The translations under genes and the position numbers were made by a program. Source: an uncultured Erysipelotrichaceae bacterium (GTDB taxonomy: Bacteria; Bacillota_I; Bacilli_A; RFN20; CAG-826). Taken from it: a DNA stretch of 64,000 nucleotides. Location of the stretch: assembly GCA_902787955.1 (NCBI GenBank), contig CADAIJ010000007.1, forward strand, positions 128,326 to 192,325. The letters are read 5' to 3'. Within the stretch, counting starts at the first letter, position 1. The number at the start of each line of letters is the position of its first letter. A model generated the notes under the pieces. That model worked only from the letters and a program-made list of their open reading frames with translations. It was not told the DNA's origin and ran no database searches. Shown piece after piece: positions 37,083-56,923 of this stretch.

Positions 37083-38059
37083 AAGGTATACCCCCTAGCT
37101 AGTAAATCTACATATCTTACTTTTTTATTCTTTTCCCAATCCATTATCTTTGCATATATGCCGTTATGCTGATATACATCGCCTTTAGCACAACCTATGC
37201 ATCCATTTTCTTGTACATCTTCTTCGCCAAACAAGTTTATTTGAACTATTCTTTCTACTTGACAAGATTCAGGTATAACGCATTTAATTCCATCCATTTG
37301 CCATAAATTCCAAGAAATAATAGTTGCAACTTCAATCATTAAATCTTGAGATGGAAGCTCATTTAATTTTGCATAGTAATACTCAAAATAACTAAATAGG
37401 ACATTTTCTCGTGCAAGTAATAAATTATCTCCTTGCCATTCATAACCATATGTTGCTTTTAAGGCTTCTAAAGAATATTTTACCCAGTCCTCTTTATTAT
37501 TAGTATTCTCATTAACGACTCTTAACTTTCTATCTAAAAGACCTACTCTATCCTTTAAATCAATTCTATTACCAGTAACAGTATCATAACGACTAACAAT
37601 ATAAGGGGCTTCACCACATGTTATTTCCATTCTTATATCTTTAACATAGTCTATCCACGTTTTGCCTTCTGGATACTCAATTTTAGATTCAGTAGATTTC
37701 CATGTATTATTATCTAGCTCCTCATTGAAGACACCTGTTTTATTAAACCATGCATTATCAATTAAATTGTTTTGTTTATTACACATCCAAGATGGTGTAA
37801 ATACTTCAGCATTATCTTTAGATCTCTTTGATTGTTCGGTTTTTGATTTTTGGCTTCTGGGTTTAATGAAATTCTTTTCACCAATAATAAAAGGTGACAT
37901 GTTTTCTTTAAATCTATATCCTTTTCTTTTATATGAGTCAGTAGCCCAAATAATATTTTTTCTAGTTGTATTATCTATCAAAAGTAAATCCAGAATCTTT
38001 GGATAATTTTCTAATAGGTATTTTTCATTGATGTCAATTGAATCCAAAAATTCCATCAT
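37070..38059 (-). CDS. hypothetical protein co-transcribed with the helicase-MTase (contains an EVFTP-type motif-X-like string but no NPPY)
   Basis: 329 aa; AEVFTPSWMCNKQNNLID; overlaps both the upstream HTH gene and the downstream giant gene. Confidence 0.4.
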   Translation of the reverse strand: MMEFLDSIDINEKYLLENYPKILDLLLIDNTTRKNIIWATDSYKRKGYRFKENMSPFIIGEKNFIKPRSQKSKTEQSKRSKDNAEVFTPSWMCNKQNNLIDNAWFNKTGVFNEELDNNTWKSTESKIEYPEGKTWIDYVKDIRMEITCGEAPYIVSRYDTVTGNRIDLKDRVGLLDRKLRVVNENTNNKEDWVKYSLEALKATYGYEWQGDNLLLARENVLFSYFEYYYAKLNELPSQDLMIEVATIISWNLWQMDGIKCVIPESCQVERIVQINLFGEEDVQENGCIGCAKGDVYQHNGIYAKIMDWEKNKKVRYVDLLARGYTLCVQ

Positions 38060-38250
38060 TATTCCTCCACTTCAATTTTATATTTTTCTAAATAAGGCAT
38101 TAACATTCTTTTAATTTTCATAGTTGGTTCATGCGTTCCCGCTTCCCATCTATTAACAGTACCGAAAGTCACACCAAAAAGTGCTCCAAATTCAGTCTGA
38201 GTTAAACACATTTTTAATCTAACTTTTTTTATAGCTTCATTATATTTCAT
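38059..38250 (-). CDS. XRE-family HTH protein (controller-like)
   Basis: LTQTEFGALFGVTFGTVNRWEAG is an HTH_3 motif; first gene of the operon; a TATAAT lies about 30 nt upstream. Confidence 0.6.
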   Translation of the reverse strand: MKYNEAIKKVRLKMCLTQTEFGALFGVTFGTVNRWEAGTHEPTMKIKRMLMPYLEKYKIEVEE

Positions 38251-38558
38251 TGTTAAAAAGCCTCATTTCATAAATATGTTAATATTATATCATCTTTTAA
38301 TCATTTTTGCTATTGTTAAGAGTTAATTTCTTCCTTAATATCTTTTTATTACTTCAAGTACTGGTCCAAACATAACTGGATCTAATGCATCGCAAAGCCA
38401 AGTTTATGTAATTCTTTTATCATATTTTCATTCATAAAGTTAAAACCATATGCATACCATTTGGGTCACCTCAATTTTAAATAATTGTGAACAGCGAATT
38501 TTGGCAGATACTATAAAAATGAATCTATAGATAATATTTCTATTATAAATACACAAGT

Positions 38559-38658
38559 TGCGCACATTTCTTATCCTCATACCTATACAAATAATGCCCC
38601 TATAATTAAGTACAGCATTGGAGCCCAGTGTAGTCGCCTTGCTGATGGCTAGGGCTTG
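38559..38658. repeat. copy 1 of the ~100-nt cassette-boundary repeat
   Basis: About 85% identical to 45422..45523. Differences are compensatory within predicted hairpins: GCC/GGC versus CACC/GGTG, and GCCC/GGGC versus CCCAG/CTGGG. Confidence 0.65.
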
Positions 38659-38713: not shown

Positions 38714-40027
38714 TTATATATCGCGGTAACCTAGCATCCAATTTATCCAACTTCGAATTGTTGAAGCTCTCCTTTTAAATGTGGAATCTGATAATTTTAA
38801 TGTATCTTTTTTATCTAAAAGCATCATCTCAATATCATCTGTGGTTGACTTAGTAATACTCTTTTCTCTCAAATCATTGTAAATTTTATTAAAAATGTCT
38901 TTCGAAATTAGTCTGTTAAATATCTCTTTTTCAATTTCTTCTTTATTACCTATTACCTTCAATGCGGAATCAGTAAACTTTTTTTCATGAGTGAGAAAAC
39001 CCAAATATACCAATGCCGAAAGGTAATAAGAGATTTGCCTTTCCGTATTTAAATCTAGAATTTTTAAAGCGTAGTCTTTATCATCTAAAACTCTTTGCCC
39101 CGCAATTAACATATTTACAATCTTAGTAATGTCATTTGCTTGAGGAAGAGTATTGTTAAAACCAAGAATTATAACTTCTTTTCCGCTTTTTCTTTCATTT
39201 CCATTAGAGTTAATACTGCGCAAAGTGGAAAACTTTTCTGCATAGTAGAAAATTTGGTATTTAGAATCTTTAGAAAATAACTCTATTACTTTTTCTGTCG
39301 CATTATTACTAAGAACTAATGCAGCGCCATTATCAATTGCTCTATCGCAAACAATTTTTAATTTTTCAAAATCACTAAATGTAAATCCAGCTAATTGATA
39401 TTTTGTAAAACCATCATCATCCTCATAATCATATGGTGGATCAACATAAATTATGTCGCCTGCTTTTGCCATATTTATTGCAGCCTCATAGGAACCAGAT
39501 AGAATTTTTATCGTATCCTTATTCTCAAATAAATATTTATGTATTTCTCTTAAGTTCGAACTATCACAGATTGTTGGATTTCGATATCTTCCGATTGGCG
39601 TGTTGAATTGCCCTTTATTATTAACTCGGTATAAGCCGTTGTAGCATGTTTTGTTAAGGAAAATCATGCGTGCAGCTCTTTCGACTGGTGAGTATGCTTG
39701 CGGCCAATCTTCTCTTCTATCCCACGCTCTTACTTCATAATAAAAATCGTCAGGATCTTGCCTGTATTTAGTATCAAATTCTTGAAGCTTAATAATTAAT
39801 TCTTCAATCTTATTGGACTGGATTACTTTATACGCATTTATTAAATCTTCGTTTAAATCGTTGATTATCGCCTTAGTGGGTTTGCGATCAAAAAACACTG
39901 CGCCGCCACCTAAAAAAGGTTCGATATAAGTAAAATCTTGAGAACCATCTGCTATTTCATCGATGTATCCATTGATTTTATCTAATATTTGCCTTTTTCC
40001 ACCGGCCCATTTAACAAAAGGTTTCAT
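38714..40027 (-). CDS. Dam-family (D12 class) N6-adenine DNA methyltransferase with a C-terminal extension of about 150 aa
   Basis: FVKWAGGKRQIL N-terminal signature, FLGGGAVFF SAM motif, and VDPPYD catalytic motif. Confidence 0.8.
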   Translation of the reverse strand: MKPFVKWAGGKRQILDKINGYIDEIADGSQDFTYIEPFLGGGAVFFDRKPTKAIINDLNEDLINAYKVIQSNKIEELIIKLQEFDTKYRQDPDDFYYEVRAWDRREDWPQAYSPVERAARMIFLNKTCYNGLYRVNNKGQFNTPIGRYRNPTICDSSNLREIHKYLFENKDTIKILSGSYEAAINMAKAGDIIYVDPPYDYEDDDGFTKYQLAGFTFSDFEKLKIVCDRAIDNGAALVLSNNATEKVIELFSKDSKYQIFYYAEKFSTLRSINSNGNERKSGKEVIILGFNNTLPQANDITKIVNMLIAGQRVLDDKDYALKILDLNTERQISYYLSALVYLGFLTHEKKFTDSALKVIGNKEEIEKEIFNRLISKDIFNKIYNDLREKSITKSTTDDIEMMLLDKKDTLKLSDSTFKRRASTIRSWINWMLGYRDI

Positions 40028-40034
40028 TTATTAT

Positions 40035-40775
40035 TTATTCACTAGTTAATTTCTTTAATTGATTGTATACCATTTCTGCTAAATCTTCTTCACTTATCGC
40101 GTCTAACAATCTTACGCTGCCTAAATAAGAAATGTATTTTGCTATTTCTGCATATAAATCATTATTTTCATTGTTTGGGTTTTCATCGTAAAACCTTTTT
40201 TCTCCGCGTAAGGCACCTCTCACTAAATGTTCTTCAGAAGAGAATGAACGCCATGTTAGGTTTCTAAATCTCAATGGATTCTCAACAACCCATTTTGATA
40301 ATTCATACTTATCGGGTTTTGATTCATCAACAGTAAGTGCTATACGGAAATAACATCGAGATAAAACCCCAAACATGAGTCCTCTTCTAACACCTGTTGT
40401 GTGAAGCCACATATTTTTAATTGTTGTTGAACTATTAATCTTCATAAGGTTTTTGGTAACTAAATAGAATTTATCTAAATGCAACCAAAGCCAGAATCTT
40501 ACATCGGTTAAAATGTGTCGTGGAAGTTGATTTAAGTGTTCATATAACCTTTTAGAGTTTTCGAAATCGATTTCTTTATCTTTTCCTTCAGGGTTATCAA
40601 TTAATTCAAAATCTTCAATTGCGATTTTCTTTTCAACAAACATTGGTTGAGGAAAAGTATCTTTCATCCAAGCATTATCATCATTTGAGATAATTAAATT
40701 AGTCAAAGATTCAACGTTATGAACAAAATATTCATAAGCATCATTTGATAAAAGTTTAATATGAATAAACGCCAT
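40035..40775 (-). CDS. hypothetical protein (cassette member)
   Basis: 246 aa; directly follows the next ORF upstream with a 2-nt gap. Confidence 0.4.
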   Translation of the reverse strand: MAFIHIKLLSNDAYEYFVHNVESLTNLIISNDDNAWMKDTFPQPMFVEKKIAIEDFELIDNPEGKDKEIDFENSKRLYEHLNQLPRHILTDVRFWLWLHLDKFYLVTKNLMKINSSTTIKNMWLHTTGVRRGLMFGVLSRCYFRIALTVDESKPDKYELSKWVVENPLRFRNLTWRSFSSEEHLVRGALRGEKRFYDENPNNENNDLYAEIAKYISYLGSVRLLDAISEEDLAEMVYNQLKKLTSE

Positions 40776-40777
40776 AA

Positions 40778-41683
40778 TTATTCCTCCTCAGGTTGTGCTG
40801 TTTTCGATTGAAGCGATAATTTTTCAAGACTAGAACCAAAAGGTTTTTTCAAAAGCTGTTGTGCGAAAGAACACGCAGAAGTCTTCTTAAATGTATCAAC
40901 TTCTAAATCGGTTCCAAATAATCTTTTGTATGATGACAAAACCGATCTAAACCAAATATGTTTATTACAAATATCATCGAAATCTACGTCATCATCTTGA
41001 ATTTCACTTTTACAAATTGAGAAGCCTTCAGTTAACGCTGGAATAAGCAAAGAATTAAAGAACATTTCTTGATAAGCAGGAATTGCATAAATGATTTTAT
41101 AATTATCAAAATCTTTCTTTGCCATCGTAATAACAATCTTCTTAGAAGAATCGCAATCAACAGAAAACATTCCATCTTCTAGTTTTTCATCGCAAATAAT
41201 GGAGAATATAGATGAGACAACATTGTTTTCTTTTTCTTCGTGACGGGCATGCATGTTAAACCCATCATAAACTGCGACTATATCATATTTTTCAATGCTG
41301 AATTTATAGTCTAAGTAATCATCATCAAACTCGTCAGATGAGAGTATAAAATCTTCTGTTGCATAAGCAAATAATGAGCAATCCAATCTTTCATTAAAAT
41401 CAGATTTATATAAAGTTAATTTTTGAGGTTGCTGAGTAATGACAAATTTTTTTCTAAATACGGTATACGAACATTCAATAATTAATAAGATTTCAATTTT
41501 CTTTTCATCATAAAGCTTTTGGATTGTTTTGCTGTTCGTCACGAAACAAATGTTATCAAAAACAAATCTGTCATCATATTCAATAAAATCGTAGCTAAGA
41601 TCAAAGGTTAAATCTTTGTAATTAGATAATCCTAAATTTTTATTAATAACAGGATACGGAAACAGCTTATTTCTGACTTGCAT
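40778..41683 (-). CDS. hypothetical protein (cassette member)
   Basis: 301 aa, acidic; overlaps the GHKL gene by 17 nt, implying translational coupling. Confidence 0.4.
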   Translation of the reverse strand: MQVRNKLFPYPVINKNLGLSNYKDLTFDLSYDFIEYDDRFVFDNICFVTNSKTIQKLYDEKKIEILLIIECSYTVFRKKFVITQQPQKLTLYKSDFNERLDCSLFAYATEDFILSSDEFDDDYLDYKFSIEKYDIVAVYDGFNMHARHEEKENNVVSSIFSIICDEKLEDGMFSVDCDSSKKIVITMAKKDFDNYKIIYAIPAYQEMFFNSLLIPALTEGFSICKSEIQDDDVDFDDICNKHIWFRSVLSSYKRLFGTDLEVDTFKKTSACSFAQQLLKKPFGSSLEKLSLQSKTAQPEEE

Positions 41684-43610
41684 ATGTTATTTTAACCTCG
41701 CTTCCAAAATTTTCGTGAATATTTGTAACTAATTGAATTAAGACTTTTTGTCCTTCTTTTATCGAAAAAGGCCCAGCTTCAATTTGTGTTGAGCAATCAA
41801 CATTAATTCCATTCACTTTCATTTCTATAATCTCAATTTGCTCGCCACCATTTACATCATCAAGTCTTAAAAGTGATAAGTAACATTCTTCTTTAGAAGT
41901 TGGGGCATTAAAGACAACGTTAAATCTGCCTTCTTTTGGGTTTACACCAATAAACTTATAATTTACTCCGGCGAGCTTTGTTCGAACGAAAATGACGCTA
42001 TCCCCATCTTTTTTTCCACCTTTTTCAGTGCCAGGATGAGGGTCACCACCAGTTTTTTCATTCCTACCACCAGGATATTCAACTTCATTGCCTTCATCAT
42101 CAATGCCACCAATTTGTGGTTCAAGTCCATTGTCAAAATCGCTCTTATAGTTTGCGTTCTTGCTAGATGTTGAATTTTCTTTTCTTTTTGACATTGTAAC
42201 TTCATCAGCTGGTTTTGGTTTTTCATTATTCTTCTGTCCGCTATCACCTGCAGCTTCATCTGGCAAATATTCACCGGCCCCATTTGGATCGATCGGATCA
42301 TCATTGTCTAGTTGAAGACATTCAATAATTTTCTCATTAATCTTTATTTTAATTTCATTAATTAATCCAACGATTTCTTTTTTATATGCTTTATCTTCAA
42401 TTCTATTTGTTTCCCAATCATCATGTTTTGGGTTTTCTATATTGCGTAGGGCTTTTCCTAAATCTTCGCCTTCAATAATACAAAGTGCAGAAGCATCATA
42501 TGAATTCGACATATTAAAGTTTTTAATCTTCATATATGGTTTTCTAATCATTGTGATTTGATGTGTTGCCAAATCAGAATTATCTTTGCCAAGTTTTAAT
42601 ATATATAAACTGCAATTGCCATATTCTGTATCGATATCGAAAACGCTAACATCTTCTCCACCTTTTAAAATTAAATATTGAGATACTATTTCATTTTTTA
42701 ACTTAGCATCAATGAGTTCTTCGTCAAAAACTAAACTATCAAGTGTTTCTTTTGAAATAATAATATCTTGATATTTTACAACTATATGACCGTAGAAAAT
42801 CGATGCCATGAATGACTCAAGCACGCTATTAACAACTTCTTTTTTAGTATCTGCAGAATCAGAGTAACCGATAATAAAAATATCGGTTCCACATTCATCG
42901 TTTCGATTCAATGCACTCTCATCAAGCATCAATAAATTATCGCAAGGTTCATGCAATTCATTAGAACAATAATATCCCTTTCCTAAAGTGTAATCATTGC
43001 TTTGAGAACCAACAACTACACCGGAAGCAAAATCGGCAACGCCAATTGATCCAGAATAACTACACAGTTCACCGTTTAGCCCTTGATTTGTCTTAGTTGA
43101 ATAAAATACAACCTTAGTTGAAGACATTAAAAAGGCAGCATTTTTACCAACACCCTTAGATCCTCCTGCTAACTCACTAGGTTTTTCTGATACACCAGTA
43201 CTTTTAGCTAAAGCTAAAAATCTATTATTTTCTGATTCGTTACTTTCTATACCAACTAGACCAGTTGTATTGTAGTCGCTTACTCTTAGACATGTGATTT
43301 TTTTGCTAGATAATGACTTTAATATTTTGTCATAAACAGCAACATAGTCTTTCTTGTATGACCAAAGATCAATACAGTTTTGGGCAGCTTGGCGAAGTTC
43401 GTCAATCCCCGGAATCTTAGCTGTATCAATTTCAAATGTTTTAAATTCAACAAGGACAGGACTCTCGTCTGAAGCTCTCGCATCAATTGAGTTCTGTAAA
43501 ATTTCACGTGCAAAGCCTTTATGCGCGTTCTTTTTGAATGTTTCGGTATCAGCAGTGCTTATACCCCTTTTATCAGTGTGATTTGCTTTAGGAAATCTCC
43601 AATTATTCAT
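41667..43610 (-). CDS. GHKL/Bergerat-fold ATPase (MORC/MutL-like HATPase_c) protein
   Basis: Motif N FAREILQNSIDA, G1-like SDYNTTGLVG, G2-like GGSKGVGKNAAF. The large C-terminal region has no recognised motif. Confidence 0.65.
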   Translation of the reverse strand: MNNWRFPKANHTDKRGISTADTETFKKNAHKGFAREILQNSIDARASDESPVLVEFKTFEIDTAKIPGIDELRQAAQNCIDLWSYKKDYVAVYDKILKSLSSKKITCLRVSDYNTTGLVGIESNESENNRFLALAKSTGVSEKPSELAGGSKGVGKNAAFLMSSTKVVFYSTKTNQGLNGELCSYSGSIGVADFASGVVVGSQSNDYTLGKGYYCSNELHEPCDNLLMLDESALNRNDECGTDIFIIGYSDSADTKKEVVNSVLESFMASIFYGHIVVKYQDIIISKETLDSLVFDEELIDAKLKNEIVSQYLILKGGEDVSVFDIDTEYGNCSLYILKLGKDNSDLATHQITMIRKPYMKIKNFNMSNSYDASALCIIEGEDLGKALRNIENPKHDDWETNRIEDKAYKKEIVGLINEIKIKINEKIIECLQLDNDDPIDPNGAGEYLPDEAAGDSGQKNNEKPKPADEVTMSKRKENSTSSKNANYKSDFDNGLEPQIGGIDDEGNEVEYPGGRNEKTGGDPHPGTEKGGKKDGDSVIFVRTKLAGVNYKFIGVNPKEGRFNVVFNAPTSKEECYLSLLRLDDVNGGEQIEIIEMKVNGINVDCSTQIEAGPFSIKEGQKVLIQLVTNIHENFGSEVKITYASQK

Positions 43611-43629
43611 ACCTTTCCCCCTTTCTTAC

Positions 43630-43851
43630 CTATAACTCGAATCTTTTATTATTCTTATTGTTTTTCTTTAAAAGATATTCTTTAACTTTTTTTGTTTCTT
43701 TCTCTATTAAGCTAAACATTTTCGCAATATCATCGTCATCATATTCATAGTAAGAAGCATTGCTCAAGTTGCCTAATTGATTAATAGAAGAAACAATTTT
43801 TGAAACACGGTTTTCTGAAATCCTTTTAAAATTAGATCTTTTATTTTCCAT
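43630..43851 (-). CDS. small hypothetical protein (73 aa)
   Basis: ORF positioned between operon members. Confidence 0.3.
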   Translation of the reverse strand: MENKRSNFKRISENRVSKIVSSINQLGNLSNASYYEYDDDDIAKMFSLIEKETKKVKEYLLKKNNKNNKRFEL

Positions 43852-43937
43852 ATCAGTTTCCTCACAAAAATGTTACTATAACAAGCAATATACGTCAAAT
43901 ATTTTCGTAATATTTTTCAACTATTGTGAAAATCAAA

Positions 43938-45359
43938 TTATTTTACTAAAGTAACTTTAAAATTTAATGCACTATAAGTTGACCCACTATTTTCAACAGC
44001 ATAGTGCTCTCTTAAAAAAGAATTAATTATTCCTAGAAGAAGATATTTGTTCCAAGGGTAAACTAATGTTGGCAAAGATGAAAATCCTTTATATGTTTCA
44101 GAATCTATATTTGAAAAACTATTGATATAGAAATCTATTTCATCTTTTATCTTTTCTAAATCGCTATCAGTAATAATAAAGCTGCTCTTTCTAACAAATT
44201 TATCTTCGTTAATACTGACATAGTCATCAGCAATATCTTCAGCAAACTGCTGTATGTTTGTCAAAAATGTTATATTCAATTTCTTCGCATGCTGTTTTAG
44301 CTCGGAAAGTGTAAACGAATCTTTTGAATACGCATATTCCTTAATCATTTGTTCTTTAGAAAGGGCGGTCTCTTTTGAAAGAGAGATAAATGGTTTAGAA
44401 AAATAATAAGTTCTTCGTAACCCTAATTTAGCGATTGAGAATAAAACATTGCGGTTTGAGGATGTCCCAAGCTCTTTCATTTTGTCATAATGTAAAAGCA
44501 TCATTCTACTGTATAACTTATCAATAGAAATTGTTGTTGTTTTTAAAGAATCAAACAGGTATTGAATTTCTTTTGATAAGATTGGAATAAAATCTTCACT
44601 CAATTTGAGATCATTATTATCAAAGAATTCTTTATCAGCAAAGTAACTGTCTAAATAATTGAGACATTTTTCAATAGCACCAGCACTTTTTGGTGATGTT
44701 ATATATTTTGTCTGTGCATATTCAATCGTTTTTGTTTTGTAATTAAAAAAAGCAAATTCATCTTCAAACAAGAAAAAATCAGTAAACCCTGGCGAAATTT
44801 CATGCAATAATCCGTTAATAGTTTCAAAGTTATTAATAATATGGTTTGCTTTAAAAACATCGAGGCCAATACTTTTTAATGCTTTTTTAAATCCTTTTAC
44901 AGCTTCATTATGATAATATTCCTTAACTTCTTTAGGTTCACAAACGTGATGTCTTGAAATTAATAAAAGGCAAGATTTTAAATCGACATCATAAAATTCA
45001 AGTATGTTGACAAGCATCATAAATGAATGGGTGGCGGTGTGATTTAAGTTAATGTATAAATCACGATACATCCTATGATTTGAATTTTTGGTTTCACTAA
45101 AGAGTTTTTGCTTGCTCCACCACAATTCGTATGACAAAAGTTCCTCTTTGGTTTTAGGGTTTAAACTATCAAGTATTTTTAAAACATCAAAAACGAGATT
45201 TGTCCACCCTGTTGGATATAACTTAATATTGTCACATTCAAAATAAAATGGGGTTGTATCAGTTAAAACAGGAGTCTCTGTATCAAGAGCATATTCATAA
45301 TAATGATGCCCATTAATTACATGAATCTTATATTTATCTTTTAGCTCATCGAAAGTCAT
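43938..45359 (-). CDS. hypothetical protein (first gene of the GHKL/Dam cassette)
   Basis: 473 aa; a TATAAT lies immediately upstream; no motif recognised. Confidence 0.4.
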   Translation of the reverse strand: MTFDELKDKYKIHVINGHHYYEYALDTETPVLTDTTPFYFECDNIKLYPTGWTNLVFDVLKILDSLNPKTKEELLSYELWWSKQKLFSETKNSNHRMYRDLYINLNHTATHSFMMLVNILEFYDVDLKSCLLLISRHHVCEPKEVKEYYHNEAVKGFKKALKSIGLDVFKANHIINNFETINGLLHEISPGFTDFFLFEDEFAFFNYKTKTIEYAQTKYITSPKSAGAIEKCLNYLDSYFADKEFFDNNDLKLSEDFIPILSKEIQYLFDSLKTTTISIDKLYSRMMLLHYDKMKELGTSSNRNVLFSIAKLGLRRTYYFSKPFISLSKETALSKEQMIKEYAYSKDSFTLSELKQHAKKLNITFLTNIQQFAEDIADDYVSINEDKFVRKSSFIITDSDLEKIKDEIDFYINSFSNIDSETYKGFSSLPTLVYPWNKYLLLGIINSFLREHYAVENSGSTYSALNFKVTLVK

Positions 45360-45421
45360 AACTAACTCTTATTATAAAAAATCATTGGTTTATTCAACAA
45401 CACCTATTTTATTTCGAAACA

Positions 45422-45523
45422 ACTAAATTGAGGCGGACATTTCTTGTCCTCACACCTATATAAATAATACCCATATAATTAAGGCACAGCATTGGAACCC
45501 AGTGTAGTCACCTTGCTGGTGGC
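45422..45523. repeat. copy 2 of the cassette-boundary repeat (5' part of the GC-rich non-coding segment)
   Basis: Aligns base-for-base with 38559..38658 and carries compensatory hairpin substitutions. Confidence 0.65.
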
Positions 45524-45995
45524 TGGGGCCTAGCCTAGTATAAGGAGAAATGTGGGATACTGCATCAATCCGAAGACCAAAGTAGAAATACTTAGGTATC
45601 CGACTAAAAGAGTCGCTTAGGTTAGTGGCGCATTTCGCTTCTATATGTAAGTAGGTAATAGACCAGGCATGACAAGAGGCTCTGCAGAAATGCATCCCAC
45701 GTGCAGATAGTAGGTTTGAGACCCTATTATCTCCGTTCTCAAAGGAAGTGCTTGATTTGACGGGTGGTGACATCCTATAACTGGTCTATTATGCATCAGT
45801 AGGGGAATATCAAGTTGACCTAGTTATGAAGATCATCTTGCTGAAGCTCCCTGAAAGTTGGAGGATACTGGTTCCTCCCTAGGTATCGGTTAGTAATAAC
45901 TCTCATCGGAAGTAACGGGGTCGCTCCCTATTACTCAGCCCGATGCGTTAGTGTACGAACAACATATCGAAGTAAGAGGTGTATGACGAAGGTCG
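45422..45995. ncRNA. candidate large structured non-coding RNA (unclassified; strand unresolved)
   Basis: About 570 bp with clearly higher GC than the surroundings and no credible ORF. Many perfect hairpins, for example GGAGGAtactggtTCCTCC. An interleaved AGTAATA / CATCGG / TATTACT / CCGATG arrangement is pseudoknot-like. Confidence 0.4.
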
Positions 45996-46044
45996 CCAGT
46001 GCTATTTTTATTTAATACTTACTAGAAAAGGAGGGAGTTCCTAT

Positions 46045-46254
46045 ATGAAAAAGACAAAATCAAAGTCTAGTTACACTAACATATGGTTACATAGAAATAA
46101 ACATATGTGGCATGAGTTGGATGGCTTAATTATTCTTGAGGATAGAGAGCACACTCCTAAGATAGTTAGAGATAGAGTAGACGAGATCAATTCGAAGAAA
46201 ATGAAACCGTCAAATAATGACGATATTATGGAATTCCTTAAAGACTTCCTTTAG
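46045..46254 (+). CDS. small basic hypothetical protein (about 70 aa)
   Basis: AAAAGGAGGG RBS 7 nt before the ATG at 46045; a terminator hairpin follows. Confidence 0.45.
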   Translation: MKKTKSKSSYTNIWLHRNKHMWHELDGLIILEDREHTPKIVRDRVDEINSKKMKPSNNDDIMEFLKDFL

Positions 46255-46529
46255 GAACAAGGGTTGAGCGACATCAATCCTTTTTCTTTACTTATAAAGA
46301 TTATTTGAAAAAGAAAACATCCAGTAAGGATGTCGAATGCAGAGACCTTAAAGGCTTCCGCGAATACGTTAACTACATCGATACTGGATGTACCATCGTT
46401 TTCAATACGGCGGATATTTCTCACACTGTATCCTACGATGTCTGCTAAGTAGTCTTGTGTCCAATTCTTACTTAGTCTTAGTTGCTTAATGGATTTACCT
46501 ATTAAGCTTGAATCAATTAATGTACTCAT
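46251..46529 (-). CDS. XRE-family HTH regulator
   Basis: NWTQDYLADIVGYSVRNIRRIE is an HTH_3 motif. Confidence 0.6.
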   Translation of the reverse strand: MSTLIDSSLIGKSIKQLRLSKNWTQDYLADIVGYSVRNIRRIENDGTSSIDVVNVFAEAFKVSAFDILTGCFLFQIIFISKEKGLMSLNPCS

Positions 46530-47394: not shown

Positions 47395-48366
47395 TTATTT
47401 GCTGTTTTTCTTAATTAGGTTGTTTAAAGGTGGGTGTCCACTTTCTGTGAGCATTTTATTAGCCGCTACAAGATCCATATGATCGTTGAAAGCGCGCATA
47501 ATAATCTTGTCTTTGCTGATATTTGCATCAAGTTTCTCGTTTATTAATGATAGGAGTTCTTGTGTTTGACGTACATCAAGGCCTAGATTAAAGCAAATGC
47601 CTATGAGGGTATATTTCTTTGGAATCGATCCATTGAGAATATTGTTGAATCCTGTTTGACTAATAACACCTGAGAAACATTGTGCCTTACTAGCGGTCTT
47701 ATCAATCATGTATTTTTTTATTTTTAAAGATAGTTCGTTGGAATCTGGTGCTTTTCTTTGAATATCGTAAATGTTTGAGGTGTACCAGAAAAAACGTTCG
47801 TATTCTCGATCTCTGCTTTCTAGCATTTCCTTGCTTTCTTTTGTAAGGTGGCCACTGACAACATTGTAATTTTCGAAAATATCTTTGTATGTTTTAAACA
47901 TTGATTCGGTGTAAACCATTAAACCGACATTTAGTTCTTCGTGTTTTTCTAAATACTTTGTAATTGCGTTAATCGCTATCTCAATTGCATCTCTTTTAGG
48001 GTATTTATAGGCACCAGTGGATAGAAGTGGAAAAGCGATACTATCTAAATCGAAATCAGTTGCCATTTTTAAACAGGATAGATAAGAAATCATTAAGAGT
48101 CCTTCTTCGTTATGTTTACCATCAATCCACTTAGGATCTGCAACTAAGATAATTCTTTTACAAGGAAGGTTATACGCATTAACAATGATGCATTGGCCAA
48201 TATTGATTGGACTAAATTGTTTTAGTTCTCTGGCAAGTTTATCTCCACCTATTTTCGCTAGTTGTTCGCCCATTGGTCCTTCTAGTTTTAATGAAGGTTG
48301 TGTTGGCACTACAATAGCGTCGTAACGTTGCTCAAAGATATCTCCCTTAACAATACTGAACCCCAT
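47395..48366 (-). CDS. macro-domain protein (divergent MacroD-like N-terminal domain plus a C-terminal extension)
   Basis: SIVKGDIFEQRYDAIVVP...GEQLAKIGG parallels the macro-domain start VKGDIT...DAIVNAAN...GGGV. Confidence 0.5.
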   Translation of the reverse strand: MGFSIVKGDIFEQRYDAIVVPTQPSLKLEGPMGEQLAKIGGDKLARELKQFSPINIGQCIIVNAYNLPCKRIILVADPKWIDGKHNEEGLLMISYLSCLKMATDFDLDSIAFPLLSTGAYKYPKRDAIEIAINAITKYLEKHEELNVGLMVYTESMFKTYKDIFENYNVVSGHLTKESKEMLESRDREYERFFWYTSNIYDIQRKAPDSNELSLKIKKYMIDKTASKAQCFSGVISQTGFNNILNGSIPKKYTLIGICFNLGLDVRQTQELLSLINEKLDANISKDKIIMRAFNDHMDLVAANKMLTESGHPPLNNLIKKNSK

Positions 48367-48461
48367 AATAAATCCCTCCTTTATGCTATATAGCGATTTT
48401 TATGTCGACACCGCTATTATAACATTTAAGAAGGGATAAACCAAATCTACTCCTAGATTTT

Positions 48462-50081
48462 TTAAAATCTAGCATAGAGGATTTCGCGGATTTTTGTAAA
48501 ACACTCGTCTAAGATAGGCATTAGTTCTTGAATAGTAAGATTATGTTTCTTCTCCATTTCTTTTAATGAAAAATTATCTAATCTATATTCTTTTAAATAT
48601 ATAAGCTTATCTCCGAAGTATTCTTCTTCATTAGGAGTAAGACTATTAATAAATTCAATAATCTTCTTTCTATCAGAGATAACTAGTTGCCAGATGTAGG
48701 TATAAATATCATCAAAAGTAAGAGTGATATCTTGATCATATTGGTTGATGACTATGCCTTCATATCTAGGATCGTTTTTAATGACTCTAACTAAATCATT
48801 AAATGGGAATACTGCGTTAGATAGCATCTCAGATTCATCCGGAAGATAGAATGGATCAGTATAAAGCGCTAAATAGACTTTATTATCTCTTCTAATCTTT
48901 TGGATTCTAGTTATTTCTTTTCCTAATCCAGTTAAAACATCTTTCTTAGTTAAGATAGAAATATTATCGTAATCCACCTCTAAAGTAGTCATTGAACATA
49001 TAAACATATTGGAGTTCTTAAGCATATTTGCTAATTCTCCAGTCATTCTAGTGTGTTCTTTTTTACCTTTAAATTTAACTAGTTCCTCCACTAGATCATC
49101 TTGCCCTAGAGTAGCGTTACTATCATAGGAGGTTTCCATAAAGACTTCTTTAAATTCACTAAGGATAGTAACCAAATCATCATCAGGAACTTTTAGACAT
49201 AAATCATTTAGTTCTTTTATTCTTTTAACTGTTAGTATGTCTCTAAATCCATGTGGACTTTTAACAATAAGATGATTTCCAGGTTTAATAGAATCTTTAA
49301 GATAAGAAGGAATACCTTTAGCTAAATAGGTGTTTGTGCCAAAATCTCCTAGATAAATATATGGTGTTTTATGTTTCTCATGTTCATAAAAGTCTTCTTC
49401 ATATTGTTCGAAGTAATCCATTGCTTCTCCTATTTCAAAGATAAACGGGTTAATGAGATTTAATCTATCTAGATGATCTTCCTTAAGTTCTTCATAGGTA
49501 TCTAATGGGAATGGGTAGACGACTGCATCATCTTTAGTACCATCATTAAACGCGACCAATATGTTAGGATTTCCGTTTTCATCATGTTGATTAACTAAAG
49601 AAACGCAGTTGATATGGTCAACGTTTATACCTTTTTCTTCTTTAATCATCTCTGGAAATGCTATCCAAATCATTTCTAAGAGTAAAGTAACTAAACGATA
49701 ATCAAGATTATTATCATAGGAATTTATAATTGTGGATACGGTCGGGAAACATGTAGCGCCGATTATGTTGATAGAGTCTATCTCTTTAGCCCACTCTTCT
49801 CTAATTAATGGGTTTTCCACTAAAGATTCTTTATCTTCTAAGACATTTCCATAACAATCAGCGAACACCATAAACTTCTTTTCCATATCGTGATATAAGA
49901 AAGGATAATGGTGAGTAAAAGTTTTATGGCAATGTGGGCATGTTACATGAAATAATGAAGTATCTAATAGTTTTTCTTTAAGTTCAGGGTCTAAAGTGAC
50001 ATTGATACTATCATAGATAACACAAGGAATCTTCTTATTGCATTTAGGACATTTAAAACTATAAATATGGGATTTAGACAC
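48462..50081 (-). CDS. hypothetical protein with an N-terminal double CxxC zinc ribbon
   Basis: CPKCNKK...VTCPHCHKTF; 539 aa. Confidence 0.4.
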   Translation of the reverse strand: MSKSHIYSFKCPKCNKKIPCVIYDSINVTLDPELKEKLLDTSLFHVTCPHCHKTFTHHYPFLYHDMEKKFMVFADCYGNVLEDKESLVENPLIREEWAKEIDSINIIGATCFPTVSTIINSYDNNLDYRLVTLLLEMIWIAFPEMIKEEKGINVDHINCVSLVNQHDENGNPNILVAFNDGTKDDAVVYPFPLDTYEELKEDHLDRLNLINPFIFEIGEAMDYFEQYEEDFYEHEKHKTPYIYLGDFGTNTYLAKGIPSYLKDSIKPGNHLIVKSPHGFRDILTVKRIKELNDLCLKVPDDDLVTILSEFKEVFMETSYDSNATLGQDDLVEELVKFKGKKEHTRMTGELANMLKNSNMFICSMTTLEVDYDNISILTKKDVLTGLGKEITRIQKIRRDNKVYLALYTDPFYLPDESEMLSNAVFPFNDLVRVIKNDPRYEGIVINQYDQDITLTFDDIYTYIWQLVISDRKKIIEFINSLTPNEEEYFGDKLIYLKEYRLDNFSLKEMEKKHNLTIQELMPILDECFTKIREILYARF

Positions 50082-50866
50082 TAAAAACCACCATACCTTT
50101 CCTTGAATTCATTAATAACACCTCTCATCTCTAAAGGAAGAGTGTTAATAACGTCATTAACTAAACTAGCAGGAATTACTTTATAGTAGGCTTCTGCAAC
50201 CGCACAAGAAATTGCCGCGGTTGTGTCACAGTCTCCTCCAATTGAAATTGTGGTTCTTAAACAATCTTCAAAGGAAGTAGAAATAAAGAAACAATATAAG
50301 GCTTCTGGAACGGTTAGTTGACATATTTCAGGACCATGAACATATGTGCTCCTAAGTTCTTCATAATCGAAGTCTAAATCATAGAACTTGGAAGCAAAAT
50401 CCTTGAGTTGCTCTTTATTTTTTCCATTTCTAGCCATACGAATGAGTTCACTTGTAACATAAGCACCCTTCATTCCTTCTTTATGGTTATGAGTAACTTT
50501 AGTAAAGGTATCACTTAATTCCTTAACTACATTAGGATCATCGCTTACCCATCCTACTGGGGATATACGCATTGCGCTACCATTGCCGCAGGAATTATAT
50601 GGTTTTGGGTTAGCCATATACATCCAGCTTGAAAATGAACCACCATAACCGGCATTAGGATATTCTTGAGCCAATTTTTGTAAATATTTAGCCGCAGAAA
50701 CCTCGTCTTTTATTTCTGCATGAAGTAACCAATCCATACAGGCGATAGTTAAAACGGTGTCATCGGTGTATGTTGAATTTTTAGTAACTAAGGTGAATTC
50801 TTTAGTTTTAATGTTATTGAATTCGAAACGTGAACCCACTACATCTCCAATAATCGCTCCTATCAT
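50081..50866 (-). CDS. ADP-ribosylglycohydrolase (ARH/DraG family)
   Basis: MIGAIIGDVVGSRFEF and YTDDTVLTIA correspond to ARH metal-binding motifs. Confidence 0.65.
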   Translation of the reverse strand: MIGAIIGDVVGSRFEFNNIKTKEFTLVTKNSTYTDDTVLTIACMDWLLHAEIKDEVSAAKYLQKLAQEYPNAGYGGSFSSWMYMANPKPYNSCGNGSAMRISPVGWVSDDPNVVKELSDTFTKVTHNHKEGMKGAYVTSELIRMARNGKNKEQLKDFASKFYDLDFDYEELRSTYVHGPEICQLTVPEALYCFFISTSFEDCLRTTISIGGDCDTTAAISCAVAEAYYKVIPASLVNDVINTLPLEMRGVINEFKERYGGF

Positions 50867-52095
50867 TATTCATTCCCCTCCTTTTCTTTCATTTTTTGGT
50901 CCATATATTCTTTGAATTTCTCCGCAAGAGATGGACTATTTGCGGTTAATCTTTTAATTTCAAGGTTTGGAATTTGGTTAACTGCTCTACCCAAATGAGT
51001 AACAGTCTTTTTAAATTCGTCTTTGAAATTCTGGACTTTCTTAATAATGTCTTCGCACATCTTATCGACCTGGTCATAAATCTTACCCGCGTTAGAGTAA
51101 TCAGTATTGATCTTATCTACGACTGTTCTAACCGCTGTTTCAAAGTTAGCGATATCAACATTTTCTTTTTTATATCTATCGATTTCTTTTCTATAGCTTA
51201 AGGTATTTCTCGCCATTGAACGGATTAAGCCGATGATAGTGAGGAAGTATTGAGGTCTAACCACAAACATCTTTGGATAACGATGTGACACATCAACGAT
51301 ACCTTTATTATATAAAGTGCTATCGCTTTCTAAGGTAGAGACTAAAACTGCATACTCACATCCTTTGGATGTTCTATTTTTATCAAGCTTACTAAAGAAG
51401 TGTTCGTTTTTATGCTTATCTTTAGTGGTGTCTTTTTCTGTCTTCATTTCAAACATGATGGAGACAGTTTCAATACCATCGATATAGTCGCGGAAAATGA
51501 AGTCACCTTTTCCTTCTTCGTCCACTTTATTATCTTTTTCAAAGTAGGAATCTGGGTAAGCAGTCATTCTTACTTCGTTAAAAGCATCCTGACAGTATTT
51601 CTCTAAGGACTCACCTAAGTCTTTAGTGGAATCGCCCATTCTAAATTCCTTCCAAAGCTTAATCTCGTTATCTTTAGCTTCGAGTTGGAATTCGTATTGC
51701 TCTTTAAGCTTTTGGGTGGATAACACTAATTCCTTTTCATTATTAGCGATTTGGCCTTTAAGCTTAGTGATCTCTTCGTTCTTCTTAGAGATAGTCTCTT
51801 TATAAGTGTCTAAAGCAGAATTGACGGCAATTGTTGTGTCTTTTTCGGAGTTAGCTAACTTCTCTTCTAAGACTTTAATCTTGTTGTTAAGTTCCGCGTT
51901 TAAAACTTCTTGGGCCGCTTTTAGTTTATTGGCTTCGATTTCGTTTTTAGCTTTATAAACTTTTTCGAGGTCAGTTACCTTATCTTTAACTCGACGTTCG
52001 ATTTCTTCGGTTTCGATATCTTGAAGGAGAGAATTATATTCATCCTTCCCGATTTCGATAATTTCTTTACATTTAGGACATGTGATTCTTAACAT
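50866..52095 (-). CDS. coiled-coil protein with an N-terminal zinc ribbon (DUF2130-like)
   Basis: MLRITCPKCKEI..., a long coiled coil, then an alpha/beta C-terminal domain. Confidence 0.4.
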   Translation of the reverse strand: MLRITCPKCKEIIEIGKDEYNSLLQDIETEEIERRVKDKVTDLEKVYKAKNEIEANKLKAAQEVLNAELNNKIKVLEEKLANSEKDTTIAVNSALDTYKETISKKNEEITKLKGQIANNEKELVLSTQKLKEQYEFQLEAKDNEIKLWKEFRMGDSTKDLGESLEKYCQDAFNEVRMTAYPDSYFEKDNKVDEEGKGDFIFRDYIDGIETVSIMFEMKTEKDTTKDKHKNEHFFSKLDKNRTSKGCEYAVLVSTLESDSTLYNKGIVDVSHRYPKMFVVRPQYFLTIIGLIRSMARNTLSYRKEIDRYKKENVDIANFETAVRTVVDKINTDYSNAGKIYDQVDKMCEDIIKKVQNFKDEFKKTVTHLGRAVNQIPNLEIKRLTANSPSLAEKFKEYMDQKMKEKEGNE

Positions 52096-52098
52096 ATA

Positions 52099-52677
52099 TT
52101 ATTTATTCTCCTTTCCTAATTCGTATTTTAATGTAATGACATAGTCATTATGATAATTAGATAAACCCGCGACAGTCACTAAACACTTCTTATATGAGTA
52201 GCGTTTAGCTTTATGCATTAAATCGAAGAGTGTTCCTTCCATATTGCAGTTAATGCAACTAAATGTCTTATTAGTGATACTTATAGCAACAGAGTGATTG
52301 TCCTTACAAAATGGACAATTAACATATAGGAAGTCGCCTTTTTTAGTTACATTTTTAAATAAGAAGTCCACTACTTTAATGGTGTCAGCATGCTTTAAGA
52401 CATCTTTCTCTGCTCTTTTAAATACTCTACGTGCCTTGCGCATTTCCTTACGTCTAATACGAGTAGCTTTTTCCTCCTCGGCAGCAGCTACATCAATGTC
52501 GTACTCAAGATACTTAGCGCATTTAAGTAAGTCTTCGAGAGCTAATCTATCATCGTAGAACTCTTCGAGACAGTTAAGCATGGTGACTTCTAGCACGTCT
52601 TCGCGTGTTAAATTAGATTCGGACAATTGATAATCAATTAAGTCCTCGATGTGTTGTTGAATTTCGTTTTTAGTCAT
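52099..52677 (-). CDS. zinc-finger hypothetical protein
   Basis: CPFCKDNH...CINCNMEG; basic central region. Confidence 0.4.
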   Translation of the reverse strand: MTKNEIQQHIEDLIDYQLSESNLTREDVLEVTMLNCLEEFYDDRLALEDLLKCAKYLEYDIDVAAAEEEKATRIRRKEMRKARRVFKRAEKDVLKHADTIKVVDFLFKNVTKKGDFLYVNCPFCKDNHSVAISITNKTFSCINCNMEGTLFDLMHKAKRYSYKKCLVTVAGLSNYHNDYVITLKYELGKENK

Positions 52678-52679
52678 GC

Positions 52680-53601
52680 TTATTTTCCTCCATTCTTTTG
52701 ACGATCAATTTCATCTAATACTTCTTTTTTAGGTTCGTAACCCATCGCTAAGGTGAGGACTTCGAGGTCATTACGACACATTTCGTCATCTAAGTAGGAT
52801 TTAAAGAATCCATCAAGGATGATGGCGTCAATTTCTTCGTCATCCTTGTTTTTATACTTGTTATGTAATTGTTCTCTTAGTTTTTTTAAGAACGCTCTTA
52901 TTTCTTGTTCGTTCATACTATTTATTTCCTCCTTTTAATTCTTCTAACCATTCAGGCCTTTTAATTGTTTCCATAAGGACATCAATAAGGTCAGTGACTA
53001 AGTCGTTATAATCACGAGCCATAAAGGTGTCGATAATAACACCACCTGGAAACTTACCGGTGTTGATGTCAATAGCCTCTTTTTCAAAGGCTTTAAGTTT
53101 CTTTAATAAGTGTTCGCGCTTACTAAGTAGTTGTTGATTAGTGTTGTTTTTTACGCTTGCCATATATTTTTCTCCTTTACTTAAATAACACTGACATAAT
53201 GTCTAGATGGTCTTTTTCTCACTACTGAACTTAAATCATCCATCCAGCGAATGATAACCATGTAATCGTGGGAACTAATTTCTCCTGAGTTATAGCCATT
53301 ACGGAATCTCTCCATAAGTGTGTGATTAGTGATGCCGCGCTTATTGGCATCTTTTACTAATTGATTGAACTTATCTTTGTTCATACACTACTACCTCCTT
53401 TTCTAAGTAATTCTCGTAGTCCTTATCCTGTAAGAGGCTACTCAACTTGAGCTCCTCTTTTTTACGGAGATAGGCGATTACTTTCTTATTCCTATTAGTG
53501 AACTTGATGTCACTGATTTTGCTTGAATATATCTTGCTATTCATTTTTATTTCCTCCTTGTTAGCTAAGTTTTTCATCTCGGTTTTCTCTCGAGCCAACA
53601 A
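52680..53601 (-). other. array of four tiny ORFs (78, 81, 67 and 76 aa), tightly packed
   Basis: Contiguous or overlapping stops and starts: 52680-52916, 52918-53163, 53181-53384, 53371-53601. Resembles a phage or anti-defense early-gene array. Confidence 0.35.
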
Positions 53602-54099
53602 TAGGTTAAAATAGAATATGAATTTCAGATAATTCGTGACTTGTCGTAAAAAATAGTCCTATACTTTGTATAGGACTTTCTTGTAATTTCTCAATTAAGG
53701 ATTGTAGTCCCATAACTTAGGTATAATTCAATAACCACCTTTATTATGGGGAATGAAGATTAGGATTTGGTCAATCCGGAAATGACAAATATAAAATATG
53801 AGGAAAATGGTCAATTGTTCCCCCACACTTATTTTCACCCACTATATTTATATAGTATTTGCCCTTTTTAGCACTAAAGAGGCTCGGGGAGGGCCAAATA
53901 TCTAGATAAGGATATTTAAATCCTAACTATATATTTCGTGGCCCTACGAGCCTCTTTTTATAAATCTATATTTCTTAGTAATCCTAAATAATATTATTAA
54001 TATTTTTAATATTGTTGTTCCACTCTTAACATTTGCTTAACATATAGGTGAAATAAGAAGTCGTTGTGTTTCGTTTCATTCCTCACTTTCTTTAGAAAA

Positions 54100-54133
54100 G
54101 GATACCCTTATCGCTTGGGGTATCCTTTTCCTT
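54100..54133 (-). terminator. intrinsic terminator
   Basis: GGATACCC-ttatcgctt-GGGGTATCC hairpin with an A tract on one side and a T tract on the other, just downstream of the minus-strand gene ending at 54158. Confidence 0.55.
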
Positions 54134-54157
54134 ATCTTTATTAATGCCTTTGTTTCT

Positions 54158-54511
54158 TTAGTCTTTAAACCTTAATAGAACCCCACCTGGTCTATCTTTC
54201 TCTTTAGATTTTTCTTTAACTAATGAGTTATATAAGTTAGTGTTCCTCTTCTTAATAAGTTCATCATAATACTCTAATAATTCTTCAACATATAATGGCT
54301 TTCTAACTCCAGCGCAGTAACACGCCATAGAGGTGACACCTAGTTGGAAGACAGTGTAATCATCTAAATCCACGGCAATACCTATTACTTTATCTTTAAG
54401 ATTATAAACATCATCTAACTTATGATAGATCTTATATCCATCTTCTTTACTTAATCTATTAATAAGTGTGTTAATCCCATCATAGGATTTATAAGTTAAG
54501 ATATACTGCAT
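54158..54511 (-). CDS. hypothetical protein (117 aa)
   Basis: Last gene of the operon. Confidence 0.4.
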   Translation of the reverse strand: MQYILTYKSYDGINTLINRLSKEDGYKIYHKLDDVYNLKDKVIGIAVDLDDYTVFQLGVTSMACYCAGVRKPLYVEELLEYYDELIKKRNTNLYNSLVKEKSKEKDRPGGVLLRFKD

Positions 54512-54525
54512 ATTAATATTATTAT

Positions 54526-55299
54526 TTAATCTCTTTCTTTAAATTCTCTTACTTGTTTATAGCCCTCTAACATATATTTCGCTAAAGTATGTGGCTCTAC
54601 TCCCCCAGTTAAACCTCCAAAGGCAGGGATAACGATAGAATGGATGTTAGCTTTAAGCGCCATAATAAGAGTGCTTCTCATCGAATTATAGATAACTAGA
54701 GGGTCTTTAATAATAGAAGGTGTTCTCATCGTTGGAGTGTGTATTAACTTCTTATCTGTATTAGGGATATCCACGAGAATTGAAGTTCCTACAGGTTGTT
54801 CACCAAAATAATTTTGTTTAATGAAGTTCTGGACTCTTTTTTGTAAAGTATCTCCAAAGTATCTAGTAATCGCTAAGTCGTAGCCTCCATTCATGATTCC
54901 AAATGAATTAGCAGGACTTACAATACATTCAACATTTTTATGTGTGTCCATAAAGTGTTTAAAGTCATCTAAGACTACTTCTACTTCTTTATAGCTAGAG
55001 AAAGCTTTTTTAAATTCAGAGATGATTTTAGGGTTAATATCAAGAAGATAGATTTTAAGGTTATTAAGATTAGAATAAACTTTCACAATATGGCCTTTAT
55101 TATAGAAAGGTTCAGAACTTACTAAGTCTAAAGAGATAAGTTCGTTAAAGATAGAATCCGCTAAAGGGAAAGAAATAGAGAATGTTCTTTGTAAGGTTGA
55201 GATAGAAACGTATTTCGTATCTTTAAGCCATTCTTTAATCACATCCATTAAGCCTTCGTTATAGGCTTTAGTTAGTAAGTCTTTGTTATTATTCATCAT
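54526..55299 (-). CDS. FtsK-gamma-like winged-helix + macro-domain protein
   Basis: YVSISTLQRTFSISFPLADSIFNEL resembles the FtsK gamma wHTH. ECIVSPANSFGIMNGGYDLAI and AFGGLTGG are macro-domain signatures. Confidence 0.5.
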   Translation of the reverse strand: MMNNNKDLLTKAYNEGLMDVIKEWLKDTKYVSISTLQRTFSISFPLADSIFNELISLDLVSSEPFYNKGHIVKVYSNLNNLKIYLLDINPKIISEFKKAFSSYKEVEVVLDDFKHFMDTHKNVECIVSPANSFGIMNGGYDLAITRYFGDTLQKRVQNFIKQNYFGEQPVGTSILVDIPNTDKKLIHTPTMRTPSIIKDPLVIYNSMRSTLIMALKANIHSIVIPAFGGLTGGVEPHTLAKYMLEGYKQVREFKERD

Positions 55300-56021: not shown

Positions 56022-56109
56022 TATTCATCCTTCTTTCTTGGCTCATATTATGGAGGGGGTTAATGAAAAAATGTAAAGACTTGACTTAATTTAACTACTG
56101 TTAAGAATC

Positions 56110-56784: not shown

Positions 56785-56834
56785 AACTATTAATCATTAT
56801 AGCGGTTCTAATCTAATTTATCAGTTTAGATAAA

Positions 56835-56875
56835 GAAAAAGACCGCAGAACCCAAGTGTTTTGGGAGTGCGGTCT
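56835..56875 (-). terminator. intrinsic terminator after the macro gene
   Basis: AGACCGCA...TGCGGTCT hairpin followed on the minus strand by TTTTTCTTTAT. Confidence 0.55.
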
Positions 56876-56923
56876 ATCTCGCTCTGTTGCGCTTAAATAA
56901 TAATATTAAACGATCGGGTGATG

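Follow-up and report, generated by a model that had tools for sequence, protein, structure and literature searches.

Background

ROOL RNAs, which are abundant and stable, are among the largest and most elaborate of all bacterial RNAs; their cage structure was solved in 2025, and their function is unknown. They are usually described in phage tRNA arrays. Members of the family (Weinberg et al. 2017, PMC5737381) self-assemble in vitro, without protein, into hollow octameric or hexameric cages, which are held together by kissing loops and A-minor contacts and contain a variable linker, as cryo-EM studies have established (PMC12286853, PMC12990946).

A ROOL on non-phage DNA is the long non-coding RNA of the Lactobacillus salivarius megaplasmid (Cousin et al. 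2017, PMC5643018). It reaches the level of 16S rRNA, and its deletion gives no growth phenotype; the expression of an HTH gene tracked the RNA across strains, and the HTH product was suggested to influence it (PMC5643018). In our analysis the ROOL of L. salivarius pMP118 was confirmed at 130 bits, with an HTH gene of about 90 codons located 78 nt after it. Cage formation and an unknown function are shared by GOLLD, another large, ornate RNA found on mobile elements; it is a separate family, typical of phage tRNA arrays. Defence hotspots with a conserved anchor are known from P2/P4 prophages and, as core-genome hotspots, from Pseudomonas and Escherichia coli.

Here we describe a segment of a 64-kb stretch of DNA (the window). 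The reading that jointly explains the observations best, to which we assign a probability of about 93%, is that the segment is an intact ROOL gene of a divergent gut and rumen Bacillota subfamily, which is accompanied by an HTH gene and a palindrome and stands at the border of a defence hotspot. The features on which this reading is based are listed in Table 1.

Table 1. Features of the ROOL locus, with positions in the window
Feature	Position	Strand	Evidence
ROOL RNA gene, ~525 nt	45486-46010	+	Rfam match and covariation; both ends inferred
TATAAT box, probable -10 element of the ROOL promoter	45474-45479	+	Box at the same position in every homologue
Closing-stem 3' strand (CCAGTGCT) and T-run, probable 3' end/terminator	45996-46009	+	97% paired; motif in most homologues
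Pseudoknot UGAGA (45717-21) : UCUCA (45737-41)	45717-45741	+	99% paired; 2 covarying pairs (GC to AU)
Long-range 4-bp pairing, 45753-56 : 45809-12	45753-45812	+	98.9% paired; 3 of 4 pairs covary
Hypervariable internal linker	45813-45847 (about)	+	Alignment columns ~353-399, without conservation, length varies
Palindrome GGACATTTCTTGTCC (GGACA-N5-TGTCC)	45435-45449	.	Conservation of the ROOL module begins here
Small basic protein gene, 69 aa	46045-46254	+	GGAGG RBS; ~50% aa identity to ORFs in L151, L158 and L176
Xre-type HTH regulator gene, 92 aa, convergent with ROOL	46251-46529	-	Pfam HTH_3, 7e-10
Decayed duplicate of palindrome, promoter and first ~45 nt of ROOL	38557-38656	+	Direct repeat; profile match, E 6e-13
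Cargo between the ROOL 5' copies	38714-45359	-	Pfam and PADLOC
D12 methyltransferase with DUF7226	38714-40027	-	MTase_II, 2e-76
PDC-M33C, B, A	40035-43610	-	PADLOC: PDC-M33C 1e-37, PDC-M33B 3e-49, PDC-M33A 9e-124
73-aa ORF	between PDC-M33 block and 473-aa gene	-	Cargo member
473-aa protein gene adjoining ROOL	43938-45359	-	No family match

Identity of the RNA

An Rfam scan of the whole window detected ROOL (RF03087) on the forward strand at 45474-46014 with a score of 186.8 bits (E 2e-40), the curated gathering score of the family being 99.1 bits. The match is not truncated and covers model positions 1-574 of 574. The initial annotation had proposed a candidate large structured non-coding RNA with ROOL named first among the candidates, and the scan that it suggested has thus returned ROOL at full length. 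A permissive rescan of 45200-46300 yielded no family other than ROOL at E <= 1. GOLLD, OLE, raiA and HEARO, which had been put forward beside ROOL, gave no covariance-model match at this threshold in this interval, and neither did tmRNA, RNase P or group II introns, which had already been judged absent; this exclusion reaches as far as the models of those families can see.

The G+C content of positions 45400-45999 is 0.41-0.465, the highest between 40 and 50 kb, compared with 0.25-0.33 in the flanks, so that the marked rise described earlier is confirmed by measurement. The forward strand has a minimum folding energy of -170.5 kcal/mol (z = -3.0), and none of 100 dinucleotide shuffles folds as well; the reverse strand is weaker, with z = -1.8. 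The RNA shares with the ROOL family its length class (about 525-540 nt), the closing stem that joins the two ends, the multi-junction architecture, the pseudoknots and a hypervariable internal linker. It also contains the family motifs AACCCAGUG, GGGAUAC, UAUAAC, CUGAAG, GGUCGCUCC, CUCAG and GACGAAGGUC.

Its score of 187 bits compares with 293-315 bits for classical ROOLs on viral contigs, a level well above it; some tertiary or quaternary contacts may differ. The RNA is a new, divergent member of a known family and constitutes no new RNA class.

Homologues and conserved secondary structure

With a specific 5' pattern, 25 loci were obtained from metagenomes of rumen and gut. When a looser 5'-hairpin pattern was applied to genome contigs, ROOL was present in four of 119 loci, the rest being mostly chance matches; the four belong to Erysipelotrichaceae, a Bacillales MAG, Anaeroplasmatales and Roseburia hominis. 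About 24 full-length homologues were identified by nhmmer, and their identity to the window RNA is 67-74% by blastn. Twenty-two distinct sequences were aligned with plain MAFFT, so that the alignment was fitted to no structure.

From this alignment RNAalifold derived a consensus of 128 nested pairs in 23 helices. Standard pairs are formed in 98.0% of the pair cells, compared with 35-43% after a shift of the 3' partners by 1-3 columns, and compensatory changes on both sides occur in 67 of the 128 pairs, compared with 13-19 in these shifted controls. None of 500 shuffles reaches any of five pairing measures. Covariation among homologues had also been suggested as a check, and what is conserved across the 22 sequences is pairing, not an ORF-like pattern.

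Three of the stems noticed earlier are among the consensus helices, namely GGAGGA/TCCTCC (45860-65 : 45873-78, with five of six pairs covarying), the TGCA-GAAA-TGCA stem (three of four pairs covarying) and CATCGG/CCGATG (45902-09 : 45940-47). The fourth, an interleaved pairing of AGTAATA with TATTACT proposed as part of a pseudoknot, is rejected: its pairing amounts to 72.9%, a value that 28 of 500 shuffles equal or exceed. TATTACT pairs instead with the nearer AAGTAAC in a nested helix that is 96% paired and covarying.

Non-nested helices were sought by scanning the unpaired columns of the alignment. The scan revealed the pseudoknot and the long-range pairing given in Table 1, together with two weakly supported 3-bp loop contacts; in the same scan of 22 sequences the third published ROOL pseudoknot had no secure counterpart. 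The long-range pairing lies at the 5' edge of the linker, and it may, tentatively and by analogy, correspond to the quaternary kissing loop that is conserved in the published cage (PMC12286853). The hypervariable linker itself sits where the cryo-EM study places a disordered internal linker (PMC12286853).

HTH gene and palindrome

The Xre-type HTH gene is a conserved partner of ROOL in the gut and rumen subfamily. At 16 loci, that of Roseburia among them, homologues with 57-80% amino acid identity are situated immediately 3' of ROOL. The L. salivarius megaplasmid resembles the window in having a ROOL on non-phage DNA with an HTH gene at its 3' side, but there the HTH gene is co-directional with ROOL, whereas that of the window is convergent, and homology between the window protein and LSL_1884 of L. 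salivarius was not demonstrable (E = 0.04). The two also differ in that the L. salivarius ROOL has metabolic neighbours (a PTS component and a chloride channel) and no palindrome, whereas the window ROOL has defence neighbours and a palindrome.

The palindrome GGACATTTCTTGTCC has no other exact match in the 64 kb, where 0.02 would be expected. It occupies the same place upstream of the ROOL promoter in about 20 loci, and in all loci compared conservation begins exactly at GGACA. A second copy, which the window lacks, is present at five loci (L156, L160, L161, L169 and L174) in the interval that separates the HTH gene from DUF2130, 139-141 nt before the HTH start; this second copy might just as well act as a terminator hairpin for DUF2130. 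The palindrome upstream of ROOL is a candidate operator and/or recombination core, and the HTH protein may bind it and thereby control ROOL.

Variable cargo and the sharp junction

To the left of the palindrome the genes are different in every locus, and most of them point away from ROOL. Upstream proteins matched PADLOC models in nine of 13 loci tested; these are single-protein matches, several of them to candidate systems only. They comprise PDC-M33 with a methyltransferase (the window), HEC-05 with a methyltransferase, HEC-06 with a restriction enzyme and a methyltransferase, two C5 methyltransferases with an MzaC-like helicase, NsnA/REase with a methyltransferase, a DdmD-like protein, DruE, an AbiU/MzaE-like protein and PDC-S01. 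On the downstream side of ROOL and HTH only two of 10 proteins matched a defence model, and that side is less clearly defence-related. The 473-aa protein nearest to ROOL in the window had no match in Pfam, PHROG, PADLOC, NCBIfam or PDB. A 247-aa homologue of it (29% identity) is present in the cargo of L166.

Three loci, L160, L161 and L169, are siblings. The sequence that begins with their right palindrome arm and contains ROOL, HTH and DUF2130 is 93-100% identical over at least 1.1-1.7 kb, except that L169 has an insertion of about 600 nt. Leftward of the palindrome the identity falls to about 40%, which is the random level, and the break lies inside the palindrome. The 5-nt spacer differs among L160, L161, L169 and L165 (TTTCT, AACGC, AACGCA and AACCA). 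Variable cargo therefore meets a conserved anchor at a nucleotide-sharp junction, the arrangement that characterizes a hotspot. Such a junction could be expected from exchange at a recombination core, but also if the promoter were under selection and the spacer neutral.

The cargo of the window lies between a decayed (38562-76) and an intact (45435-49) palindrome copy. Other loci have a single palindrome upstream of ROOL, apart from the five with a second one beyond the HTH gene. No empty-site variant was found, an exact look-up of the HTH protein returning only the window's own contig.

Duplication of the ROOL 5' end

The initial annotation had placed the second copy of a boundary repeat at the start of the segment, and a direct repeat of about 100 nt is indeed present at 38557-38656 and 45432-45530, the two copies being about 88-90% identical. 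In the left copy the palindrome arms and the hairpin pairs are broken, so that it is a decaying remnant. It adjoins the promoter side of a Type IIG restriction-modification operon, a layout also seen where a full ROOL adjoins its cargo at other loci. The methyltransferase, PDC-M33 and 473-aa genes occupy the 6.9 kb that separate the copies.

Two other loci, L164 (3153-3256) and L167 (2689-2792), contain a decayed fragment followed by one AAA-ATPase gene and then a full ROOL; their fragments are identical and were counted as one lineage. The window fragment is 88% identical to the ROOL of its own locus and at most 67% identical to any other, and the L164 fragment is 81% identical to its own ROOL and at most 70% to others. 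The right-hand breakpoints differ as well (at about nt 45 and nt 75 of ROOL). Because each fragment is closest to the ROOL of its own locus and the breakpoints are different, the fragments represent independent local duplications. From the sequences, the ROOL 5' end has been duplicated while cargo was placed before the intact ROOL, independently in two lineages. Both Campbell-type integration of a circle carrying the 5' segment and stacking of modules that truncates the resident copy fit as the mechanism.

Neighbourhood of the locus

The initial annotation pointed to the mobile and prophage-like regions in which ROOL and GOLLD are known, but the neighbourhood gives no support to a prophage-like setting. 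Phage ROOLs, with about 300 bits, lie in tRNA arrays, whereas the window ROOL has no tRNAs or phage genes nearby: the 64 kb contain no tRNA, and among the ten genes nearest to ROOL the PHROG matches are to generic methyltransferase and regulator families only. Megablast of the 20-kb neighbourhood and sensitive blastn of ROOL itself gave no match to phage or plasmid records. The 5' pattern of the subfamily is absent from IMG/VR viral contigs, and a first ROOL motif pattern (AAGTAANNNGGTCGCTCCNNNTTNCTCAG) had no match in viral contigs. The classical ROOLs on viral contigs sit among tRNA genes; in one such contig (L012, 4842-12628) a ROOL of 294 bits is part of an 11-tRNA array with a group I intron. 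Within the subfamily, tRNA genes are present at two of 26 loci. At one locus (L105, an Anaeroplasmatales MAG), which has no HTH gene, a tRNA-Ser gene at 1090-1180 on the reverse strand follows ROOL at a distance of about 570 nt, its 3' end pointing towards ROOL; it may be an attachment site of the island.

From about 32 kb onwards the window reads as a defence island, judging from its predicted genes. The block beside the ROOL fragment (33069-38250, reverse strand) encodes a Type IIG restriction-modification enzyme of 1337 aa, a separate methyltransferase and a small controller HTH protein. A cluster of ADP-ribosylation genes at 47395-58544 encodes three Macro-domain proteins, an ADP-ribosylglycohydrolase, NADAR and a DarT-like toxin, the last of which lies next to a Macro protein as a DarTG-like pair (56924-58544). 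Other island genes are CpXC and an AAA+/M41 protease. The DUF2130 protein (50866-52677, reverse strand), which is also present in L160, L161 and L169 with 55% identity across loci, belongs to the conserved backbone beyond the HTH gene; in the window it is followed by a CHC2 zinc-finger (primase-like) protein. The left part of the window, which appears to be chromosomal, contains a c-di-GMP-I riboswitch (22492-22569, reverse strand, 55.2 bits) and a SAM-I riboswitch (31911-32006, reverse strand, 47.8 bits); apart from ROOL, these two are the only Rfam matches in the window.

The most serious alternative is that ROOL is a mere passenger in a large defence island, and that the junction results from purifying selection on the promoter with no recombination site involved. 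This is conceivable and retains appreciable weight, although we rate its chances below even. Defence-type genes (Type IIG, DarT-Macro, NADAR and additional Macro domains) occur on both sides of ROOL, over more than 30 kb; the rest of the window shows no enrichment of degenerate palindromes (11 against an expected nine); and no recombinase was found: the proteins scanned at 32-64 kb, in a window and loci that are partial, contain no integrase or recombinase domain, and a search for an integrase to the left of the island was negative. A passenger would not readily account for the retention of the ROOL-HTH pair in more than 15 loci whose flanks are otherwise different, for siblings that are 95% identical on the right yet carry unrelated cargo on the left and differ also in the palindrome spacer, or for two independent duplications of the ROOL 5' end flanking inserted cargo.

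As the border of a hotspot, the locus resembles the known anchored defence hotspots in its conserved anchor, its sharp junction and the diversity of defence systems at one position. It differs from them in that the anchor is an RNA gene with a promoter-proximal palindrome and that partial duplications of the anchor flank the cargo; in addition, no integrase or host element was found at the locus. The defence cargo, the conserved convergent HTH gene and the palindrome likewise set this ROOL apart from a typical one.

Limits of the transcript and the downstream gene

A TATAAT-like box precedes the 5' strand of the closing stem by 6-10 nt, and its variants among the homologues are TATAAT, TATACT, TATTAT and TAAACT. 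A generic promoter scan found no recognizable -35 element at the standard spacing of 17 nt upstream of TATAAT, and for this reason it did not call a promoter. Given the constant position of the box, it probably acts as the -10 element of the ROOL promoter.

In the closing stem, 45490-94 are paired with 45997-46001; the 3' strand of the stem occupies 45996-46003 and is followed by a T-run at 46005-46009, and most homologues have CCAATGC and then TTTTTT at this place. With the -10 box used to place the 5' end of the gene, and the closing stem and T-run to place its 3' end, we infer an independent transcript of about 525 nt that would start at about 45486-45490 and end at about 46009. A 3' end formed by a hairpin and a T-run had been predicted earlier, and the closing stem and the T-run are present; the RNA, however, would end about 15 nt beyond the position originally given.

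A small gene with a strong ribosome-binding site had also been predicted to follow, and the 69-codon gene with its GGAGG site lies directly after the T-run. It is confined to a sub-clade. Proteins of this kind, 69-80 aa long and about 50% identical, were found at four loci (the window, L151 at 6824-7066, L158 and L176), where their ORFs begin 15-35 nt past the T-run of ROOL. They share the motif KSKAAYTNKWLxRN...APKIVxxRVKEIN, and Pfam and further family searches gave no match. The protein could be a partner of ROOL.

The segment might instead be a long structured 5' leader that regulates this gene in cis, and not an independent RNA. We consider this very improbable, even though the small ORF is on the same strand, begins 35 nt past the T-run with a strong ribosome-binding site and is conserved in L151, L158 and L176. 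Most homologous loci have no co-directional ORF downstream and the convergent HTH gene abuts ROOL directly; the closing stem with its U-run resembles a terminator; and the ROOL of L. salivarius is a discrete, stable and very abundant RNA (PMC5643018).

The small ORF is one of several occupants of the ROOL 3' end, the others being an insert of about 600 nt in L169 and an ORF of 712 codons in L156. The L169 insert begins about 570-590 nt after the ROOL start, exactly between the T-run and the HTH gene, and the L156 ORF (7261-9399) lies exactly between the same two features. These occupants suggest that the ROOL 3' end is a second insertion point.

Coding potential

The only ORF of the segment, 105 codons at 45456-45773 on the reverse strand and thus antisense to ROOL, had been regarded as nonsense, and its homologues agree: 18 of 21 contain in-frame stops, and in most the length differs, too, by a number of nucleotides not divisible by three. 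The notion of a decayed protein-coding gene or a composition artefact without conserved RNA structure, which could appeal to this ORF and to the capacity of horizontal transfer to produce GC-rich islands, is refuted by the stops in the homologues, by the 67 compensatory pairs that none of 500 shuffles attains and by the full-length covariance-model match, and we give it practically no weight. Because its helices are paired and covarying, its linker is variable and the reverse-strand ORF is broken, the segment is a non-coding RNA under structural constraint and a genuine ROOL.

Proposed mechanism and significance

We propose that ROOL is its own transcription unit, which would run from a start at about 45486-45490, specified by the -10 box, to the closing stem and U-run. 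The transcript would adopt the multi-junction fold of ROOL, which includes pseudoknots and a flexible internal linker, and, by analogy with the ROOLs studied by cryo-EM, would assemble through loop-loop contacts into a hollow homo-oligomeric cage. Cage formation is a reasonable expectation for this RNA, because it keeps the conserved core and the covarying long-range pairing at the edge of the linker. In this subfamily the ROOL gene travels with the convergent Xre-type HTH gene and the upstream palindrome, and the HTH protein would bind the palindrome and control ROOL. On this view the ROOL-HTH pair is a constant right-hand border to whose left blocks of defence genes are exchanged, and the 100-nt boundary repeat is a ROOL 5' remnant that one such exchange left behind. 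Recombination as the mechanism of exchange is our interpretation of this arrangement, and any functional tie between ROOL and defence is conjectural.

A stronger version of the proposal is that the palindrome is a recombination site for defence cassettes, at which the ROOL 5' end is sometimes duplicated, and that ROOL and the Xre-type regulator are functional parts of the island (a sensor, a scaffold or a maintenance element) and not passengers. At present we hold this to be rather unlikely. In the literature searched, we found no paper linking ROOL to defence islands; if the stronger version were true, a functional role in the machinery of such islands would be the first biological role for ROOL.

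The RNA itself is not novel, and the added value of the locus is its context, namely the ROOL-HTH-palindrome module as the fixed border of a hotspot, together with the scars of the ROOL 5' end. This context, which combines a conserved partner regulator with a candidate operator and with placement at the fixed border of a rapidly changing defence hotspot, is cleaner than that of phage tRNA arrays, and it offers testable handles on an RNA of unknown function.
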